From a virus, in the IMG/VR virus record IMGVR_UViG_3300045988_098681: 64,000 bases of DNA; one strand, written 5' to 3'. Below the pieces are notes generated by a model. That model saw only the letters and a list, made by a program, of their open reading frames with translations. It was not told where the DNA came from and made no database searches. Position 1 is the first letter of the stretch, and the number at the start of each line of letters is the position of its first letter. Positions 3,637 to 46,612 of this stretch are shown piece after piece. The position numbers and the translations under genes are program-made.

Positions 3637-3805
3637 AAATAGAATAATATGCGATCGATGCCAATGGGAGGCACGATTTCTGGAATGCCAAAAAATGGAA
3701 AGATTTGGCGCAAACACTCACCCTGCAAAAAATTTCCAAGTAAAAATTTTACAAGGGATTTTTTGGAAGGGAGTGCCGGAATCGTGCCTCTTTTTTGTAT
3801 TTTTG
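3637..3805 (+). ncRNA. candidate structured non-coding RNA (~165 nt)
   Basis: starts after promoter 3602-3630. An 11-bp helix GAGGCACGATT (3668-3678) / AATCGTGCCTC (3780-3790) encloses a 9-bp helix CCAAAAAAT (3688-3696) / ATTTTTTGG (3758-3766). A T-run CTCTTTTTTGTATTTTT follows the outer helix. No RBS for the overlapping 62-aa ORF. Confidence 0.35.
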
Positions 3806-4095
3806 GGAAAGAATGGATGGTTTACAGAAAATGGTAGAATTTGCAGGAAATTGCAGATTTGGTATGCTTGATATTATTTTACAAAATTTGGCAGAAAAAG
3901 GGGAAGAGAGGGCGGAATTTTTCCCATTAACGGGATTAAAATTTGCCCAAGTGAACGCCTATATAGCGCGCGCTCTAATTATGATTATATAATAATAATA
4001 TAAACATCATACTTGATGGTATTATATGTAAATATTTATTTTTATATTGGCATGAATACGATTTGTATTTATAATATATCCAAGGAGGTACGATT

Positions 4096-4581
4096 ATGAA
4101 AGTAGCGAATGAAAAATTAAAAAACTATCTCAACACAGAATCTAAAATTTTTGGCTATGATGTTAGCGAGGTTAACTTAAAGGTATCTAAAAACAAAATC
4201 TTGCTCAATGGCATTTCGCTTGAGGTTTGGCACAAGTTGCTATGGGGTTGGCTCAAGGAATCGAATGACAGGAGTAAAGAGGATTTCTGTGAAAGTCAAG
4301 CATTTTTTAATAAGAAAACAAAAGACTTGTTAAATCTTAATTCAAATTGTTTTGCTTGCCTTTATTGTTCAATCTTAGAAGAACTTTGGGATCAAGAATA
4401 CAATGAATGGATTCCTGCTTGTTACTTTTGCCCAATATGCGATGAAAATGATTTGTGCGCAAAGGGTTGGTATTCATTATGGGATGGAAGTTTTTATCCA
4501 AACTTAAAGAAATATGCAGCATCCAAAATTGAAAATCTAAAATGGGAATGGAAAGGAATCGAAAATGAAAATGAAGAATGA
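4096..4581 (+). CDS. hypothetical Cys-rich protein
   Basis: AAGGAGGT RBS; CFACLYC...CYFCPICDENDLC. Confidence 0.65.
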   Translation: MKVANEKLKNYLNTESKIFGYDVSEVNLKVSKNKILLNGISLEVWHKLLWGWLKESNDRSKEDFCESQAFFNKKTKDLLNLNSNCFACLYCSILEELWDQEYNEWIPACYFCPICDENDLCAKGWYSLWDGSFYPNLKKYAASKIENLKWEWKGIENENEE

Positions 4582-4680
4582 AAATGAAAAACAAGAATCG
4601 AAAACGAATATCGAAAATGAAAATCAAAATCAAGAATCGAATTTGAAAATGGAAATTGAAAACAAGAATCGAAAATTGGA
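4554..4680 (+). repeat. degenerate short direct repeats (CAAGAATCGAA x3, GAAAATGAAAAT x3)
   Basis: CAAGAATCGAA at 4592, 4631, 4663; (G/A)AATCGAAAA-like units at 4556, 4595, 4609, 4666. Confidence 0.6.
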
Positions 4681-38969: not shown

Positions 38970-41312
38970 ATGAAAACAAAAATTCATTGTAAAGTCGTTC
39001 GTAACGTCTTTACAGACAACGATGGTACATTCTCAATTTATGGGTGTGTGCCATCAAAAAACGATTTAGATAAAATCCACCTCAACAAGTATGGGAACTT
39101 CACACTTAAAGGCAATTTGAGTCTACTTGAAGTTGGAGAGGACTATACTGTTGAGGTAGAAGAAAAAAGTGGCTCATACGGCTATGAGTATTGGTTAGTA
39201 GGCTTTCCAGAGATAGAAGATTTTGACGTATCTAACGTTAAAGAAATCACAGATGACCAAGAAGCAGAAATGCTCAAATCTTTTATGACTCTTAGCCAAG
39301 CAAAATACGTTCACGAAGCCTATCCGAACTTTATTCGTTTAGTGCTTATGGGTGAACAAGACAAGATTGATTACAAAAATATTCACAATGTAGCCGAAAT
39401 TCGACTCAAAGGATATATTAACAAAGTCAACGAAAGGTTCAAGTATTATAAACTTCATCTTGATAATCCACAATACGAATTATCTATAGGTGATTGCTGG
39501 ACGCTTTGTTCAACATATTCGACCATACAAGAGTCAAACTTGGCACTTGCGACCAAGCCTTACGAGGTGCTTATTGATGTACTTGGCAGAGGCTTTCAAG
39601 AAGCCGACAGAATGATATGTGAGTACGATAACAAGTGGGGAGATTCCGAAGCAAGGTGCTTATACTTGACTTGTTACTTACTTGAGTGCAATGAGGAAGA
39701 TGGCAACACGAGAATCAATGGAGCGCAAATCGCTAACGTAATCAATCAATACAATCCGCAACTTAACAAGCACATAGTTGAGCTAGTGGAGAAAAGTGAT
39801 AAGGTTTACTATGATAAACAAACTAAGGACTTATCGTTAATGAAAACATACATTAGTGAGTGCAACATAGCTCAAACGATAAAGCAAAAGACTAAGAAGC
39901 CACAGGTGTGGAACATTGATATTGAAAAGTATCGAGTAAATGAAAATATCACACTTACTGATGAACAAATGGGCATTTTAGAGCTTGTATGTAACTATGA
40001 TTTTGCAATGCTTATGGGAAATAGCGGAAGCGGGAAATCAAGTTCTGTCAAAGCCCTTATCTCGCTCCTTGAGGACAATAACAAGTCTTACACCCTTCTT
40101 GCCCCAAGCGGAATTGCAGCCAAACGCCTTCGTGAAACAACAGGTCGCGAAGCAAGCACAATTCATAGACGTATCATGTCAAGCAACGATATTGAGAGCG
40201 ATGTTGTAGTTATTGATGAGGTGTCTATGGTCGATGTTCATTTGTTCTCGACTTTACTCAATCAAATTGCAAGCTATGCAAAGATTATTCTCGTGTTCGA
40301 TTCCGCTCAACTTGCCTCAATTCAATGTGGCAACTTAGTGCAAGATATGATGGATTCACACGTTGTTCCATGCGCAGAACTTACTAAGGTTTTCCGCTAT
40401 GGTATCGGTGGAATTGCAACCGTTGGTGCAGATGCTAGGAACGGAAGAGAATACTTAACAAGTGATGGAGAACTTAATTGTGAAAATGCCGAGAATATTA
40501 AAGACTACGAGTTTATAGAGGTTAATGATGAACCGCTTGAACAAGTTATGAGTGCATATGCAAAGTTAAGAGAAAAGTACGATGTAAAAGATATTCTTGT
40601 GCTTACACCATATAACAAGGGCAATTTTGGTACTTACGCAATCAACCAAGCAATTCAAGAAAAGTACAATCCTGCTGACCCTGTTGACGATGTAGTATCA
40701 AGAAAACTTCCACCATCACTAGGAGTTCCAATGAAAACCCTTAACTATCATATTGGCGATAAGGTTATTAACAAGAAAAATAACTATCATGCACTAACAG
40801 ATGAGGGGTTTGAACATTACTTGCAAGAACAAAAGTTAAGGCTCAAGATAGATGAATATAAAGTCAAGTTTGGGGCAAATGATGAAGGTGTTTTAGACCT
40901 TGAGGATACACTTAGAATGATGGAAGAACAAGAGCCACCCGAAGCCACAATATATAATGGTGATATTGGGTTCATTAAACACATTGACGATAAAGGTAAT
41001 GTATGGGTGCAATTTGATGAAGATATGATTGTGTGTCGTAAAAGCGACCTTGAAAACTTACTCCTTGCTTATGCCTGCACTAGCCATGCGAGCCAAGGTT
41101 GTGAAGCAAAGGGAGTTATTTTCTTAACCCACCCTAGTCAAAAGCGCATGTTGTCAAGGAACTTATGTTACATGTCGCTCACAAGAGCCAAAGAACACTT
41201 AATCGAGATTGGTGATATTTCAACTATCAATAATGCGCTCAAAGTCAATGAAACAAGATTGCGTTACACGTGGCTCAGGGAACTTTTGGAGGAAGATAAA
41301 GATGTTAAATGA
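38970..41312 (+). CDS. RecD-like SF1 DNA helicase
   Basis: Walker A GNSGSGKSS, Walker B VVVIDEVSM, C-terminal CTSHASQGCE. Confidence 0.8.
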   Translation: MKTKIHCKVVRNVFTDNDGTFSIYGCVPSKNDLDKIHLNKYGNFTLKGNLSLLEVGEDYTVEVEEKSGSYGYEYWLVGFPEIEDFDVSNVKEITDDQEAEMLKSFMTLSQAKYVHEAYPNFIRLVLMGEQDKIDYKNIHNVAEIRLKGYINKVNERFKYYKLHLDNPQYELSIGDCWTLCSTYSTIQESNLALATKPYEVLIDVLGRGFQEADRMICEYDNKWGDSEARCLYLTCYLLECNEEDGNTRINGAQIANVINQYNPQLNKHIVELVEKSDKVYYDKQTKDLSLMKTYISECNIAQTIKQKTKKPQVWNIDIEKYRVNENITLTDEQMGILELVCNYDFAMLMGNSGSGKSSSVKALISLLEDNNKSYTLLAPSGIAAKRLRETTGREASTIHRRIMSSNDIESDVVVIDEVSMVDVHLFSTLLNQIASYAKIILVFDSAQLASIQCGNLVQDMMDSHVVPCAELTKVFRYGIGGIATVGADARNGREYLTSDGELNCENAENIKDYEFIEVNDEPLEQVMSAYAKLREKYDVKDILVLTPYNKGNFGTYAINQAIQEKYNPADPVDDVVSRKLPPSLGVPMKTLNYHIGDKVINKKNNYHALTDEGFEHYLQEQKLRLKIDEYKVKFGANDEGVLDLEDTLRMMEEQEPPEATIYNGDIGFIKHIDDKGNVWVQFDEDMIVCRKSDLENLLLAYACTSHASQGCEAKGVIFLTHPSQKRMLSRNLCYMSLTRAKEHLIEIGDISTINNALKVNETRLRYTWLRELLEEDKDVK

Positions 41313-41901
41313 TAAGCAAAGAAAGTTCATAGAGGATAACATAAAACTCGTTTACAAGTTTTGCGCTAGGTACAACATTACTGACGAGGACGATATTAGC
41401 GACTTTGTATGCAAGTTTTGCGAGCTTGTAGAAAGTGATGCTTACGATGAAGATAGAGGTAAATTCTCTACCTTCATTTGGGCATCGCTCAACAACTACG
41501 CTCACTATCGCTATGAGGGTCAAAATGCCCTTAAACGTAACCTTGCCGAAGGTGAAAGATTCGTCTATTTAAACAAAATGATTGCTAATGGAAAAAGCGA
41601 CAAAGAGGACGAAACAGAAATACAAGAATTGGTTCAAACTCGTAATGATTACTTTGACGAGGTTGACTTAGGCATAGCGATTGAAAAAATGCGTAAGGCA
41701 GCTAGAGAACGTGATAATAGAAAAAAGTGCAAAAGGCGCATATCAAACGAAAAAATGCTCGATATTGTTCTCTACTATTACAAACACGAGAACGGCGAAA
41801 TGAATATTACAGAGGTCGCTCGTGCGCTTCATACTACAAAACAGACTGTATTTAACAATTTGCAAGAATTAAGAAAGTCGGCAAAGAGGTGTTTAGAATG
41901 A
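41302..41901 (+). CDS. phage sigma-70-family factor 1
   Basis: region 2-like FIEDNIKLVYKF...; C-terminal HTH ITEVARALHTTKQTVFNNLQELR. Confidence 0.65.
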   Translation: MLNDKQRKFIEDNIKLVYKFCARYNITDEDDISDFVCKFCELVESDAYDEDRGKFSTFIWASLNNYAHYRYEGQNALKRNLAEGERFVYLNKMIANGKSDKEDETEIQELVQTRNDYFDEVDLGIAIEKMRKAARERDNRKKCKRRISNEKMLDIVLYYYKHENGEMNITEVARALHTTKQTVFNNLQELRKSAKRCLE

Positions 41902-42443
41902 CAAGCGAACAATCAAAATTTGCAGAAGAAAATATTCGCCTCATGTATCGCTATTTCAACATGCACAACATTACAAACGAGGACGATAAAGCAGACTTGT
42001 TTGAATACTATTGTAAAGTAATTGAATGTTACGATGATAAAAAAGGAAAATTCAGCACCCTGCTCTATTTTTCCCTTGACAGATATCGTAGACATATTTA
42101 TAATTATAAGTATAATAAGTGTAGATTTTCTGATAAGCCGAGTATATCTTTAGACTCAACTTATGATGACGAAAACGATTGGCTACAAGAGCTAGTTTGT
42201 GAAAGGGACGTTGATATTGAGTTTGTGGAGTTCTTGGATATTTGTGAGCGTGTTTATGATAAACTTGCAACTAAGAAAAATAGTTACAATCGAAAACTCG
42301 AAGATAGAGAACTCTTTACAATGCTCTTGGCAGGCTACACGAGAAAGGAGATTGGCAATATGTATAATATCTCACAACAAGCATTGTCTGTGAGGATTAA
42401 CAAAATTAAAGCAATTTTTTATAAGGAAATGGAGGAATGTTGA
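41898..42443 (+). CDS. phage sigma-70-family factor 2 (paralogue)
   Basis: FAEENIRLMYRYF..., C-terminal HTH RKEIGNMYNISQQALSVRINKIK; ATGA-coupled. Confidence 0.65.
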   Translation: MTSEQSKFAEENIRLMYRYFNMHNITNEDDKADLFEYYCKVIECYDDKKGKFSTLLYFSLDRYRRHIYNYKYNKCRFSDKPSISLDSTYDDENDWLQELVCERDVDIEFVEFLDICERVYDKLATKKNSYNRKLEDRELFTMLLAGYTRKEIGNMYNISQQALSVRINKIKAIFYKEMEEC

Positions 42444-43748
42444 TGAGAGTAGAAGAATGGCTTGGCGAAGATAATAAGATTGGGTTAGATATTTGGCACA
42501 AAAAGTATCAACATGGCAATGAGACATTCGATGAATGGCTTGATAGAGTAAGTGGAGGTGATAATGACCTAAGAGAACTCATTAAAAGTAAAAAGTTCTT
42601 ATTTGGTGGCAGAGTGCTTGCGAATCGAGGTGTGCCAGATAGTGGGAATTTTTATAATTGCTTTTCTGCCGGATATGTAAAAGACGATTATGCAAGTATT
42701 ATGGACGTATTAAAAGAAGTTGGTATTACGTTCAAGTATCAAGGTGGTCAAGGAATCTCCATGTCGAAACTTCGTCCAAAAGGAACAAAAATTGGCGATA
42801 ATTATGAGTCAGATGGTATTGTTCCTTTTATTGAAATGTTCAATTCTGTCACTAAAGGTACTTCGCAAGGCGGTGCAAGAAAAGGTGCTTTGATGATTAG
42901 CTTAGACATCAATCACAAAGAAGCCGAAACATTCATCAAGCTAAAAACTGATCTTGACGCTGTAACAAAAGCGAATCTCTCTATGGAAATAGACGATGAG
43001 TTTATGACTGCGGTGCAAGAGTTCTACTATGATGGGACAATAAAAACATTACATAAGAGATACAACTACAATGGGCATGTTGTGGAATATGATATTACGC
43101 CGATTGAATTGTATAAATTGATGATGGAAGTTGTATGGGACTACGGGGAGCCGGGGTGTATCTTTGTAGACGAATTTAGGAACAACAACTTTTTAGAGCT
43201 TGATAACGAGTATCAAATAGAAACTTGCAATCCATGCGGAGAACAACCATTAAAAGCTCGTACAAGCTGCTTGCTTGGCTCATTAAACTTATACGAGTTT
43301 GTTGAAAACAAGTTTACAAGTGATGTGTATTTTAACTTTGAGGAATTTGCAAAAGCTATTAAAGTAGCCTCAAATGCACTTGATAACATCATCGAAGAAA
43401 ATGCTCCAAGGCTTCCTAAAGAACTGGAGCAATACAAACAAAACGCTTATGATTGGCGTAATATGGGGCTTGGTGTATTCAACTATGCACACATGCTCAT
43501 GGCTATGGGGCTTAAATACGGTAGCGAAGAAGCGTTGGCTTTTACTGATACGCTATTTTACACTATGATGATAGAAGCCATTATATCAAATGACGAAAGG
43601 GGCAAAGAAAAGGGTAATTATCCAAAGTTCAAAGGCGGGTTAGTACAAAAGTCCACGATGTTTAGAAACCATGCCCCCGAAGAACTTTTACAAAACGGTG
43701 CGCTACATGCTAGAAATTGCACGTTGTTATCTATCGCGCCAACTGGAT
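42443..43748 (+). CDS. nrdJ: class II (B12-dependent) ribonucleotide reductase, exon 1
   Basis: FGGRVLANRG, QGGQGIS, GGARKGA, CNPCGEQPL, ends at IAPTG; the read-through ORF stops at 43759. Confidence 0.8.
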
Positions 43749-44051
43749 TAACACAATAGGTTCAGTATAAACTATTTTAATTGCTGGAAACCCCTTAGAG
43801 CTACTTAAACTACAACGTAGGTATGAAATAAAACCAAGCGTGAATGTCTGAAAATTAAGTAGATTGGGCAATCAGCAGCTAAGACTCGAATAGAGTAAAG
43901 TTCAACGACTATCCCGCAAGGGAGTACACAATAAGCAAGAAATGATTGTGGAAAAGGATAGATACTATTTATAGTATAAGATATAGTCTATTCTTATAGG
44001 AAACTATAAGCAGTTATATAACGGCAAATGTCTTGCGAACATTTGTGAATG
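43749..44051 (+). mobile_element. ORF-less group I-like intron in nrdJ (3' boundary uncertain, 44051-44057)
   Basis: ~300 nt with stops in all frames between two halves of one conserved gene; P1 ACUGGAU(43742-48)/GUUCAGU(43760-66) with terminal U.G; GNRA-capped hairpin UCCC-GCAA-GGGA at 43912-43923. Confidence 0.65.
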
Positions 44052-45067
44052 TAAAAACTATTGCAACGATGGTAAATGGCGCAGGAGGGGTTGAGCCTGA
44101 GTTTGCCTTATCCTACACTCGTAGAACAGACAATTTAGATGAATCCTACAAGATTGAGTCAAACATCGTAAAAGAATATCGTATAATCACAGGCAACACA
44201 GGCGAGCTACCAGACTATTTTGTATCAAGCGCAGACATCCATTGGAGAGACAGAGTAAAAACGCAATCTGTCATTCAAAAACATATTGATACAGCAATTA
44301 GCTCAACTGTCAACTTACCAAAGGAAACTACCAAAGAAGAAATCGAGGAACTATACTTATACGCTTGGATTTGTGGGTTAAAAGGAATTACAATCTTTAG
44401 AGATGGGTGCAAAAGACTTGGCATTCTCACAACACAAGAAGATGAAGCTACGCAAAGTGAAAAGCCTAAATCAGAACTCACTCGTGGAACCATTCTTTCT
44501 GTTTCCGACGACTTGATTGGCGCAAAAAGAAAATTGAATACAGGCTGTGGGTCTTTGCATTTTGAGGTATATTTTGATGAAGTGACAGGCGAACCACTTG
44601 AAACCTTTGTAAACGTAGGCTCTAGTGGTGGATGTGAGAAAAACTTACAATTCATTTCTCGACTCATCTCACTTGCCCTTAGAGCAGGTGTATCAATCGA
44701 GGATATTATCGACCAATGCAAGTCAATTAAACCTTGCCCTGCATATGTATCTAGGACTAATAAAAAACACGATACAAGCAAGGGATCAAGTTGTCCTAGT
44801 GCCATTGGATATGCGTTAGAGGATTTGTATGACAAAATCAAAGAACGATGCTTTGCGGATTTTGATTTAGAAGATGGTTATGTTGAACCATTGACAATCA
44901 GTTCACCTGCAATCAAAGAATCAGATAAGGTTGTAAAAACAGGTGCAGATGGTCAAATGATTATTAAAAACTCTGATTGTATATGTCCTGAATGTGGAGA
45001 ACCTTTAGTATTTGAGGGTGGTTGTAACCAATGCAAGGCTTGTGGTTTGTATAGTAATTGCGATTAA
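44052..45067 (+). CDS. nrdJ: class II ribonucleotide reductase, exon 2
   Basis: resumes (S/T)IATMVNGAGGVEPEF; TVNLP; ITIFRDGC; C-terminal CPECG...CNQCKACG Zn finger. Confidence 0.8.
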
Positions 45068-45076
45068 GGAGGTCAT

Positions 45077-45292
45077 ATGAAAGACGACACAAAACAAATA
45101 AATCTAAACATTGGAAGTGTAATACAAATTGTGTTTATAATCCTTAAATTAACCAATTTAATTCATTGGTCTTGGCTTTGGGTGCTGTCACCACTTTGGA
45201 TATCTGCAATTATTACACTACTTGTGTATACTATATCAGCTTGCATTATCAAGGAGAAAAAGAAATATGAGAGTAACGAACATTCAAATTAA
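45077..45292 (+). CDS. small membrane protein
   Basis: AAGGAGGT RBS; two TM spans. Confidence 0.55.
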   Translation: MKDDTKQINLNIGSVIQIVFIILKLTNLIHWSWLWVLSPLWISAIITLLVYTISACIIKEKKKYESNEHSN

Positions 45293-45872
45293 AGGTTCGT
45301 GGAGCGAGGTCTTAAATGACTCTCGCTTCACCGTATCCAAACCACCACTTGACAAAAAGCCAAGCGAAAAGTTCAAAAAATCTATCATCACAGCCGAACA
45401 TTCGCCAATTCGCGACTTAATCGTGCGTGTAGATTTGGAGGATATTCCAACATGGGTTGCAACACACCTTGTTCGCCATAAGTGGGAAAAATTCGTACAA
45501 ACACAACGTACAGATCGCACAGGTGTGGATAGACATACTCTACCCCAAGACGCTCCTGTGTCTATGCGATGTGAACTTAACGCTCAACACCTTATCGACA
45601 CAAGCAGGAAACGTTTGTGTTTTCAAGCTAGTAAAGAAACTAGGGAACTTTGGGAAGAATTTAAGTATGAACTACACAAGGTTGAGCCTATTCTTGCCGA
45701 TATGATGGTTCCAAATTGCGTTTATCGATGCGGTTGCCCAGAGTTAAGTTGTTGTGGAATGGTAGAAAAGTGGTTACCGTTTACTAAAATTGACTTGACA
45801 AATATTCAAGAACGGTATAAAATGTATAACGAATGGTTGTATAATAAGTGGAAAGAAAAAAGGGGAGAGTAA
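45267..45872 (+). CDS. thyX: ThyX-like flavin-dependent thymidylate synthase (divergent signature)
   Basis: AEHSPIRDL..(x)..THLVRHKWEKFVQTQRTDR resembles the ThyX RHRxxSxxxxSxR motif but lacks the serines. Confidence 0.55.
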   Translation: MRVTNIQIKGSWSEVLNDSRFTVSKPPLDKKPSEKFKKSIITAEHSPIRDLIVRVDLEDIPTWVATHLVRHKWEKFVQTQRTDRTGVDRHTLPQDAPVSMRCELNAQHLIDTSRKRLCFQASKETRELWEEFKYELHKVEPILADMMVPNCVYRCGCPELSCCGMVEKWLPFTKIDLTNIQERYKMYNEWLYNKWKEKRGE

Positions 45873-46319
45873 ATGGGAAAATATATGGATAATGCAAAGT
45901 TATTACATGATTACCTTAAATCGATACAAGTTGGAAAGGGGAATAAGATGAAAGATAAAATTATTTACACTAAACCATTAGAAAAAACAGAATATGGAGG
46001 CACTTTATCGCCATTTTATATAAATAATACATATGGAACATTGGGCAATAAAGTATATATTGAAAAAGTCCTCTACAACAATCCTGCCACAATCGTATTT
46101 TGGAGCGATGGAACACAAACGCGCAACATCTGCCCAAAAGAAACACTCTACAACCCAGACACAGGGCTTGCATTTTGTGTCCTTAAAAAGTTCATGGGTG
46201 GCGATGAGATGGCTAAGTTGTTCAATGATTGGGAACTCAAAGACTATCGTAGAGATAAAGGTAATTGGGTTGAGCTAAAAGATGTAAGAAAAGCGCATAA
46301 AAAAGAAAATAATGCTTGA
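45873..46319 (+). CDS. hypothetical protein
   Basis: 148-aa ORF abutting the thyX stop. Confidence 0.6.
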   Translation: MGKYMDNAKLLHDYLKSIQVGKGNKMKDKIIYTKPLEKTEYGGTLSPFYINNTYGTLGNKVYIEKVLYNNPATIVFWSDGTQTRNICPKETLYNPDTGLAFCVLKKFMGGDEMAKLFNDWELKDYRRDKGNWVELKDVRKAHKKENNA

Positions 46320-46344
46320 CTCCTTGTAACGTTTATTGTATAAG
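46316..46344 (+). promoter_or_regulatory. sigma-A-type promoter
   Basis: AATGCTTGACT - 17 nt - TATAAG. Confidence 0.5.
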
Positions 46345-46366
46345 AAGAAAAAAAGGGAGGTAAAAC

Positions 46367-46612
46367 ATGAGTTATGCACATAACAAAAGAAAAAAGAATC
46401 GTGCAAAATTTGAGGACTTGATGTGCAATACATTCGATGAGTTTTGCACCAAGCGAAATCGTCCTGCACCAATGTTACTCACAAAAGAACAATACGACCA
46501 AGAGATGTATTTGTGGATCAACTACAAGAAATACTATAAGATGGAAATGACGATGCAAGAGAGAGCATGGGCATCTAATCATGCAAAGGAGGCTTATAGT
46601 GCGTTGGAATAG
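46367..46612 (+). CDS. hypothetical protein
   Basis: AAGGGAGGT RBS. Confidence 0.6.
   Translation: MSYAHNKRKKNRAKFEDLMCNTFDEFCTKRNRPAPMLLTKEQYDQEMYLWINYKKYYKMEMTMQERAWASNHAKEAYSALE

Follow-up and report, generated by a model that had tools for sequence, protein, structure and literature searches.

A group I intron with a predicted terminal adenosine in a class II ribonucleotide reductase gene from an uncultured phage

Phage genes for nucleotide metabolism are known hosts of group I introns. The subgroup IA2 introns of T4 td, nrdB and nrdD/sunY, of nrdE in the Staphylococcus phage Twort and of bnrdE and bnrdF in the Bacillus phage SPbeta all lie in such genes (PMC3984707, in part). Here we describe an element of this textbook kind in nrdJ, predicted to encode a class II ribonucleotide reductase (RNR), in a DNA stretch of 64,000 nucleotides (IMG/VR virus record IMGVR_UViG_3300045988_098681; hereafter the window, meaning the whole stretch at that length) that comes from an uncultured phage of about 100 kb. 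Like the phage IA2 introns, the element has a compact ribozyme with P7.1 and P7.2, an insertion point in a conserved RNR active-site segment, an early in-frame stop, the core sequences AAUUGC.GGAAA, GUUCAACGACUA and AAGAUAUAGUC, and a peripheral loop in which an endonuclease open reading frame (ORF) is optional. Unlike them, it interrupts a class II (NrdJ-type, TSCPD-containing) RNR, has no P2 and appears to end in A. The unusual part is this terminal A in combination with a normal guanosine pocket. Our reading is that a homing-derived group I intron of 309 nt ends here in A and that the exons are probably ligated at A44057/C44058 (a slash marks a splice or insertion point throughout).

For a natural group I intron with a terminal A we found a single precedent, the ND5-717 intron of hexacoral mitochondria, whose ligated exons have nevertheless been seen in vivo; its authors suggest a protective role for the A against hydrolysis at the 3' site and circularisation (PMC8146996, PMC6545197). 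ND5-717 also has a large P8 insertion. It is, however, organellar, strictly vertical, obligatory, giant with whole genes in P8, and partly back-spliced, whereas the window intron is short, horizontally mobile and accompanied by G-ending sister introns at its insertion point. The introns at this site in related uncultured phage nrdJ genes, whether they end in A or in G, share with the window copy an identical APTG/S insertion point and the same fold; the complete ones all carry an HNH ORF, which the window copy has lost. A literature search of incomplete coverage turned up no description of a group I intron from bacteria or phages that lacks a terminal G. The literature treats the terminal guanosine as universally conserved and regards it as indispensable for the second step of splicing.

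Host gene and fold of the intron

A first-pass annotation, made by a model from the letters and ORF translations alone, had proposed that an ORF-less group I intron splits a class II RNR gene within its APTG segment. The two predicted exons were delimited as follows.

42437..43748, + strand: exon 1 of the class II RNR (nrdJ-type) gene, from the ORF list; PF02867 positions 8-390; ends in APTG plus the U of a Ser codon
44058..45067, + strand: exon 2; CU finishes the Ser codon and is followed by IATMVNGAGGVEPEF..., the TSCPD domain, a C-terminal Cys-rich motif and the stop

The ORF carrying exon 1 spans 42437-43759, ending ...NCTLLSIAPTG and then LTQ-stop, and its match to the Pfam RNR barrel PF02867 covered profile positions 8-390. 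The ORF had first been placed at 42443-43759; that end was confirmed, while the start had to be moved to 42437, 42443 being the third codon and also a Met. The frame of exon 2 reopens at 44033, as originally read, continues as (K)TIATMVNGAGGVEPEF and carries PF02867 positions 391-522 plus the TSCPD domain (PF12637). The spliced product passed the TIGR02504 NrdJ_Z model (415.7 bits against a cut-off of 399.95), and the host gene is predicted to encode a class II (adenosylcobalamin, NrdJ-type) RNR. An uninterrupted homologue that is 92% identical (P0003) reads APTGSIATMVNGAGGVEPEF, the exact product of a 44057/44058 junction. No close isolate phage was found, the best RNR match being 40% identical, and the exon 1 protein was not on record in the protein search.

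Between the exons lie 309 nt with 5 to 13 stops per forward frame, the longest forward open stretch being 26 codons, and no AGGAG-type (Shine-Dalgarno-like) motif was found upstream of TTG44033, GTG44045 or ATG44069. These counts agree with the initial description of some 300 nt with stops in every frame and no ribosome-binding site. The in-frame stop that closes the exon 1 frame, UAG 43757-59, sits three codons into the intron and overlaps the guide half of P10.

A search with the Rfam Intron_gpI covariance model (RF00028), the check that the first-pass annotation had suggested, returned a full-model match (1-253) at 43713-44010 with E = 9e-17, its 73.5 bits exceeding the gathering score of 50, and Intron_gpI was the sole Rfam family matched across the entire 64-kb window. 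The ends of that alignment were mis-registered, with P1/P2 put in the exon (43717-41) and the 3' end at G44010, which is merely the end of P9, and they were corrected by hand. The resulting hand-drawn structure (P1, P3-P9, P7.1, P7.2, P9.1, P9.2 and P10; 81 pairs) was tested on an alignment of the six complete introns available at this site (the window, L001, L126, L127, L128 and L131), from which the endonuclease ORF was removed where present. Across the six, 99.0% of the cells were paired, and compensatory changes on both sides were seen in 30 of the 81 pairs, a number to be compared with 3 or fewer in slid controls and reached in none of 500 shuffles. Core stretches were also similar at the DNA level to introns in 339 phage records. 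Thus, the covariance match, the 30 compensatory pairs and the TIGR02504 score bear out the proposed ORF-less intron, and 43749-44057 (309 nt) is a group I intron of subgroup-IA type that splits nrdJ between APTG and S-IATM. Its elements, 5' to 3', are listed below.

43742..43766, + strand: P1 hairpin, exon ACUGGAU (43742-48) with guide GUUCAGU (43760-66); loop 43749-59
43754..43759, + strand: P10 guide half CAAUAG, pairing with CUAUUG 44058-63, the first 6 nt of exon 2 (6/6 Watson-Crick)
43772..43961, + strand: P3 (43772-78 with 43955-61), enclosing the P4-P6 domain (hand-drawn structure, pair counts)
43782-87 with 43872-77, + strand: P4 (hand-drawn structure)
43792-94 with 43866-68, + strand: P5 (hand-drawn structure)
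43801-08 with 43855-62, + strand: P5a, 7/8 pairs with compensatory changes
43878-79 with 43900-01, + strand: P6 (hand-drawn structure)
43884-87 with 43893-96, + strand: P6a, 3/4 pairs with compensatory changes
43907..43988, + strand: P7 pseudoknot, GACUA 43907-11 with UAGUC 43984-88, an exact match to the Rfam consensus (AGACUA with UAGUC)
43912-23, + strand: P7.1, UCCC-GCAA-GGGA; loop GUAA or AUAA in relatives
43927-32 with 43945-50, + strand: P7.2, CACAAU with AUUGUG; 3 compensatory pairs
43962..43977, + strand: P8 hairpin, AUACUA with UAGUAU; endonuclease-deletion scar between 43966 and 43967
43989-92, + strand: J7/9, UAUU, in which U43991-U43992 form P9.0 with A44055-A44056
43993-44010, + strand: P9 hairpin, CUUAUAG-GAAA-CUAUAAG; 5 compensatory pairs
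44013-15 with 44020-22, + strand: P9.1 (hand-drawn structure)
44025-31 with 44039-45, + strand: P9.2, CAAAUGU with ACAUUUG, loop CUUGCGA; 3 compensatory pairs
44046..44057, + strand: 3' tail UGAAUGUAAAAA, with A44057 at the omega (last intron) position

The 5' splice site falls after U43748, which is in a U.G wobble with G43760. Both P1 and P10 had been recognised at first reading, and both held up: all seven P1 pairs, the wobble included, were kept in all six introns, with a compensatory A-U to G-C change in L131 (exon GGGU with GCUCAGU), and the six P10 pairs included a compensatory A-U to U-A change in the same intron (CAAUUG with CAAUUG). The GCAA-capped hairpin at 43912-43923, likewise pointed out then, is real and corresponds to P7.1. 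Together with P7.2, it represents the extra hairpins typical of subgroup IA introns, which argues for that subgroup; the finer placement is IA2-like, on the basis of similarity to phage introns. Homology with the Rfam consensus identifies G43907-C43988 as the predicted guanosine-binding pair. P7 was invariant in all six introns, whether the terminal base was A or G, and the P9.1/P9.2 architecture recurs in many phage introns.

The sequence CACAAU is present twice, at 43752-43757 (within the P1 loop, where it overlaps the P10 guide) and at 43927-43932 (the 5' strand of P7.2). Either copy could pair with AUUGUG 43945-50, so that an alternative pairing competing with P10 is possible; L131 does not have the 5' copy.

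The same data bear on the idea that the two ORFs are translated separately and then assemble, as reported for the NrdA of Aeromonas phage Aeh1, which is split by a homing endonuclease gene. The stop three codons into the intron and the ATG, GTG and TTG codons near the start of exon 2 would suit such a gene in pieces. Against it are the missing Shine-Dalgarno-like motif before any candidate start, the complete, covarying ribozyme whose guide pairs with both exons, and the position of the split inside a conserved active-site motif, and we regard this explanation as highly improbable.

The 3' splice site and its terminal adenosine

The first-pass annotation had left the 3' site ambiguous between G44051, or a G upstream of it, and a junction at 44057/44058 that fits the P10 register and lacks a terminal G. 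Its frame arithmetic was correct, the former giving APTG-LKT-IA and the latter APTG-S-IA. Of the two possibilities, the P10 register stood and G44051 did not, and four independent lines agree in placing the predicted 3' splice site at 44057/44058. As to protein homology, one residue only (S or T) separates AP[TN]G from the next residue in 95 of 95 full-length homologues, and in a hidden Markov model (HMM) of these 95 the serine product of 44057/44058 scored 1287.0 bits, compared with 1278.0 for G44051, 1275.6 for G44045, 1270.4 for G44030 and 1258.0 for G44010. As to guide pairing, 43754-66 pairs without interruption with 13 nt of the ligated exons, a result matched in 29 of 200,000 trials in which the first 40 nucleotides of the intron were shuffled. 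As to P9.0, UU (43991-92) pairs with AA (44055-56) immediately before A44057, and the other introns at this site have either UU with AA or AU with AU (the latter in L129, L132, L133 and L134). The underlying rule was examined in 67 distinct introns of a sister family, in which the matching dinucleotide followed by G was present in 44 cases, compared with 24.6 after permutation (0 of 2000 permutations as high). Finally, the tails of related introns end in G at the aligned position (L128, GAAUGUAAAAG/CUAUUG; L072, GAAUAUAAAAG/).

The predicted omega nucleotide is therefore A44057, since protein homology, P10, P9.0 and the homologous tails all fix the junction there. Because this junction leaves A44057 last, the terminal nucleotide departs from the canonical G expected of group I introns, with the guanosine pocket unchanged.

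A true terminus at an upstream G (G44051 or G44045) would produce an RNR with a two- or four-residue insertion, APTG-LKT-IA or APTG-LNVKT-IA, and both options are in frame, free of stops and in accordance with the terminal-G rule. However, G44051 is an A in L001 and L127, whose introns are 95-98% identical to that of the window; the AA that P9.0 requires for pairing with the J7/9 sequence UAUU is missing in front of both Gs; P10 would not form; and an insertion in this active-site motif occurs in 0 of the 95 homologues and lowers the HMM score by 9-11 bits. We therefore consider an upstream terminus very unlikely. G44051 was rejected on its replacement by A in those two relatives, the broken P9.0 and the lower score, and G44045 and G44030 were rejected as terminal nucleotides as well. 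A terminus at G44010 (with U43749) is also in frame; it inserts 17 residues and was discarded as 29 bits worse.

Additional copies of the intron were recovered solely through ORFs of exon 2 size in ENA and Logan assemblies (the contigs deriving from the public read sets ERZ27260635, SRR14509754, SRR25571777 and ERZ15609938). Among these, the APTG/S site was occupied in many diverged nrdJ genes. One lineage of introns ending in A (lineage A) comprises the window, to which L125 is identical, L001, L126 and L127, with ribozymes 95-98% identical; a second (lineage B) comprises L129/L130 and L134 and has a clearly different P9 region. L128, L131, L132 and L133 end in G at the same site. Six host alleles, spread over two diverged lineages of the intron, thus share a terminal A, and their exons are all intact and motif-complete. 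Its presence in several relatives across two lineages indicates a shared feature of these introns rather than an error, a point that, like the derivation of the intron described below, goes beyond the first-pass annotation.

The nearest G-ending relative of lineage A is L128, about 88% identical. At the positions relevant to the splice sites it differs in its terminal G and in its guide, CAAUAA instead of CAAUAG, which gives an A.C mismatch at the first P10 (junction) pair where lineage A has G-C. No core position separated the A-ending from the G-ending introns in the comparison of same-site introns. The engineered adenosine-specific Tetrahymena ribozyme carries a G-C to A-U change in the pocket. 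Such a change as the basis of the terminal A was ruled out here by the invariance of P7, and the window intron does not appear to be a natural copy of that engineered pocket.

Within the four introns of lineage A, 12 of the 13 changes in paired columns keep the pairing, and P6, P6a and P9 contribute five double compensatory pairs to this count. Such conservation is an argument for continued selection on the fold in the period when the intron ended in A.

The lineage B contigs L129 and L134 are truncated, with the 5' half of the intron missing. Their tails (L129 985-1004, L134 67-86) resemble a 6-nt duplication, reading UAAAUG-UUAAUA/CUAUUG in L129. There, AAUG six nucleotides upstream would give a canonical P9.0 and a terminal G, in frame (APTG-FNT-IATM); in L134 that upstream G is an A (UAAAUA-UUAAUA). 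The terminal A of lineage B may accordingly have another origin than the simple G-to-A change of lineage A. IMG/VR scans with three intron-specific patterns yielded no further copies of the intron, and a scan of a single metagenome gave two chance matches.

Mobility of the intron and ligation of its exons

The complete relatives all carry an HNH ORF (PF01844) in the P8 loop, of 292 amino acids (aa) in L001, L126 and L127 and 288 aa in L128; L131 also holds an HNH endonuclease ORF there, the range across the five being 288-292 aa. Rfam missed these copies at the gathering threshold, as their P8 insert disrupts the match to the model. No homing endonuclease is encoded in the window copy. It lacks 870 nt (L001 5247-6116) flanked by ATTTAT direct repeats, and the deletion leaves a short P8 hairpin and an intact ribozyme. 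Between the window and L001, the introns are 98% identical and the exons 88-92% identical, with an exon 2 dS of 0.55; against L127 and L128, dS was saturated. As the identity of the ribozymes far exceeds that of the exons, the intron has evidently moved between phages. A further trace of this movement is seen in the exon sequence beside it.

43741..44122, + strand: co-conversion tract, exon parts 43741-48 and 44058-44122, from mismatch comparison with L135, L001 and L126

The closest intron-less allele, L135, is 96.4% identical overall and differs from the window at 26 of the 73 nt of the tract, compared with about 2.4% of positions elsewhere. From the intron donors, the window differs in the tract at only 4 (L001) and 3 (L126) positions. 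The closest intron-less alleles (P0001, P0002, P0007, P0008 and L135, in the last at 2805-2885) read APNGSISTMVGGSGGAEPEF where the window reads APTGSIATMVNGAGGVEPEF, and although the genes are 96% identical, about a third of all their differences fall close to the intron insertion point. This clustering fits co-conversion from a donor and possibly reflects an endonuclease-resistant target in the intron-less allele. By comparison of sequences, these data show the intron to be a recent deletion derivative of a mobile, HNH-bearing intron that entered by homing and co-converted about 70 nt of the flanking exon. In the usual homing cycle, the endonuclease is lost at the later stage, after entry. 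The exon 2 product of the ORF-less allele is encoded on four assembled contigs, among which only L125 was read.

Under the proposed mechanism, the transcript would fold into the P1-P10 core, and a free guanosine would dock on G43907-C43988 of P7 and attack after U43748, held in P1 by the U.G wobble. The freed end of exon 1 would then attack the A44057-C44058 bond, placed by the 6-bp P10 (including the junction pair G43759-C44058) and the 2-bp P9.0 (U43991-92 with A44055-56). Ligation would give GGA-UCU-AUU, that is, APTG-S-IATM as in the uninterrupted homologues, and cDNA of the ligated exons would read ...CCAACUGGAU/CUAUUGCAACG....

Several points weigh against this reading. Changing the terminal G of the Tetrahymena intron to A with a wild-type pocket reportedly blocks exon ligation, in work by Price and Cech in 1988 and Been and Perrotta in 1991; on the strength of that mutagenesis, a standard pocket combined with a terminal A should be poor at the second step. 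We infer splicing and the exact ligated junction from the DNA sequence. The AAAAA run of the window leaves the register of P9.0 ambiguous when taken alone. All five double compensatory pairs of lineage A fall on the L127 branch, and recombination with another intron could have brought them in as a single block. Lastly, the exons bear the mark of strong purifying selection (dN/dS 0.06-0.09), but as the intron spreads horizontally by homing, most of this selection came before the insertion and is no proof that the interrupted genes are expressed. For this reason exon dN/dS was dropped as a sign of selection after insertion, the dS values of 0.55 to saturation being far above an intron divergence of 2-5%.

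A rival reading is a selfish intron defective in the second step, which would fold and might cleave at the 5' site, would not ligate with its terminal A and would inactivate nrdJ, its HNH drive outpacing selection. The standard guanosine pocket and the Tetrahymena results, which predict a block at exon ligation, speak for this explanation, and, as the intron is clearly mobile between phages, intact exons need not reflect selection after insertion. It is at odds, however, with the occurrence of the terminal A in two diverged lineages and six alleles with intact, motif-complete exons, with the pairing kept during divergence of the A-ending clade and with the strong constraint on the host gene family (dN/dS below 0.1). 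Moreover, the window allele has no endonuclease and cannot drive, yet its exon 2 product is encoded on four contigs and its ribozyme was left untouched by the 870-nt deletion. We regard a ligation-defective intron as unlikely. A functional intron with a terminal A is favoured by the recurrence in two lineages and six alleles, the drive-less allele on four contigs and the ribozyme that is intact after the deletion. As to how it would work, we lean slightly towards a phage intron family that ligates exons with a terminal A and an ordinary G pocket, a strong P10 (its junction G-C pair included) and P9.0 serving to set the 3' splice site.

If the intron is spliced, it would be a small natural ribozyme that ligates exons without a terminal guanosine and the first bacterial or viral exception found; unlike the giant ND5-717 introns, it would be tractable in vitro, with close natural relatives ending in G. 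It would test how far P10 and P9.0 alone carry recognition of the 3' splice site and whether loss of the terminal G avoids unproductive hydrolysis and circularisation. For annotation it serves as a warning: covariance models stop at P9, and terminal-G rules would misplace the junction and predict an active-site insertion of 2-4 residues.

Surroundings and other insertions

The neighbourhood of the gene (38970-46400) is a phage nucleotide-metabolism and replication module containing a RecD-like helicase, two sigma-factor-like ORFs, nrdJ, a small membrane ORF and a ThyX-like ORF. In L125, guanylate kinase, 5'-nucleotidase and dUTPase come after the shared genes of the nrdJ region.

A second insertion hot spot of the nrdJ family lies at the catalytic CNPC motif, which in the window is uninterrupted (near 43240, ...ETCNPC/GEQPL). 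At this site, L001 has an intein with an HNH_3 domain (about 3800-4600), L128 a group I intron with a LAGLIDADG ORF (951-1843), and L126 an ORF-less insert of ~190 nt (1645-1830) with a P7-like pair, AGACUAAGCG...GCGAUAGUCC, which Rfam did not call at the gathering threshold. Many C-terminal fragments of 485-515 aa among the ORFs from public assemblies reflect a split at CNPC.

Two tandem group I introns were also seen in the Bacillus phage vB_BceH_LBC2 (L002, PV449003.1), at 1001-1306 and 1411-1638 (Rfam, 50.8 and 86.6 bits), in an unannotated gap between the coding sequence (CDS) of a 'virion structural protein' and a homing endonuclease CDS. In the second, the tail has the same P9/P9.1/P9.2 arrangement as in the window intron, with no obvious terminal nucleotide (tail UGAAAAUAUAAAAGG, J7/9 UUAU).

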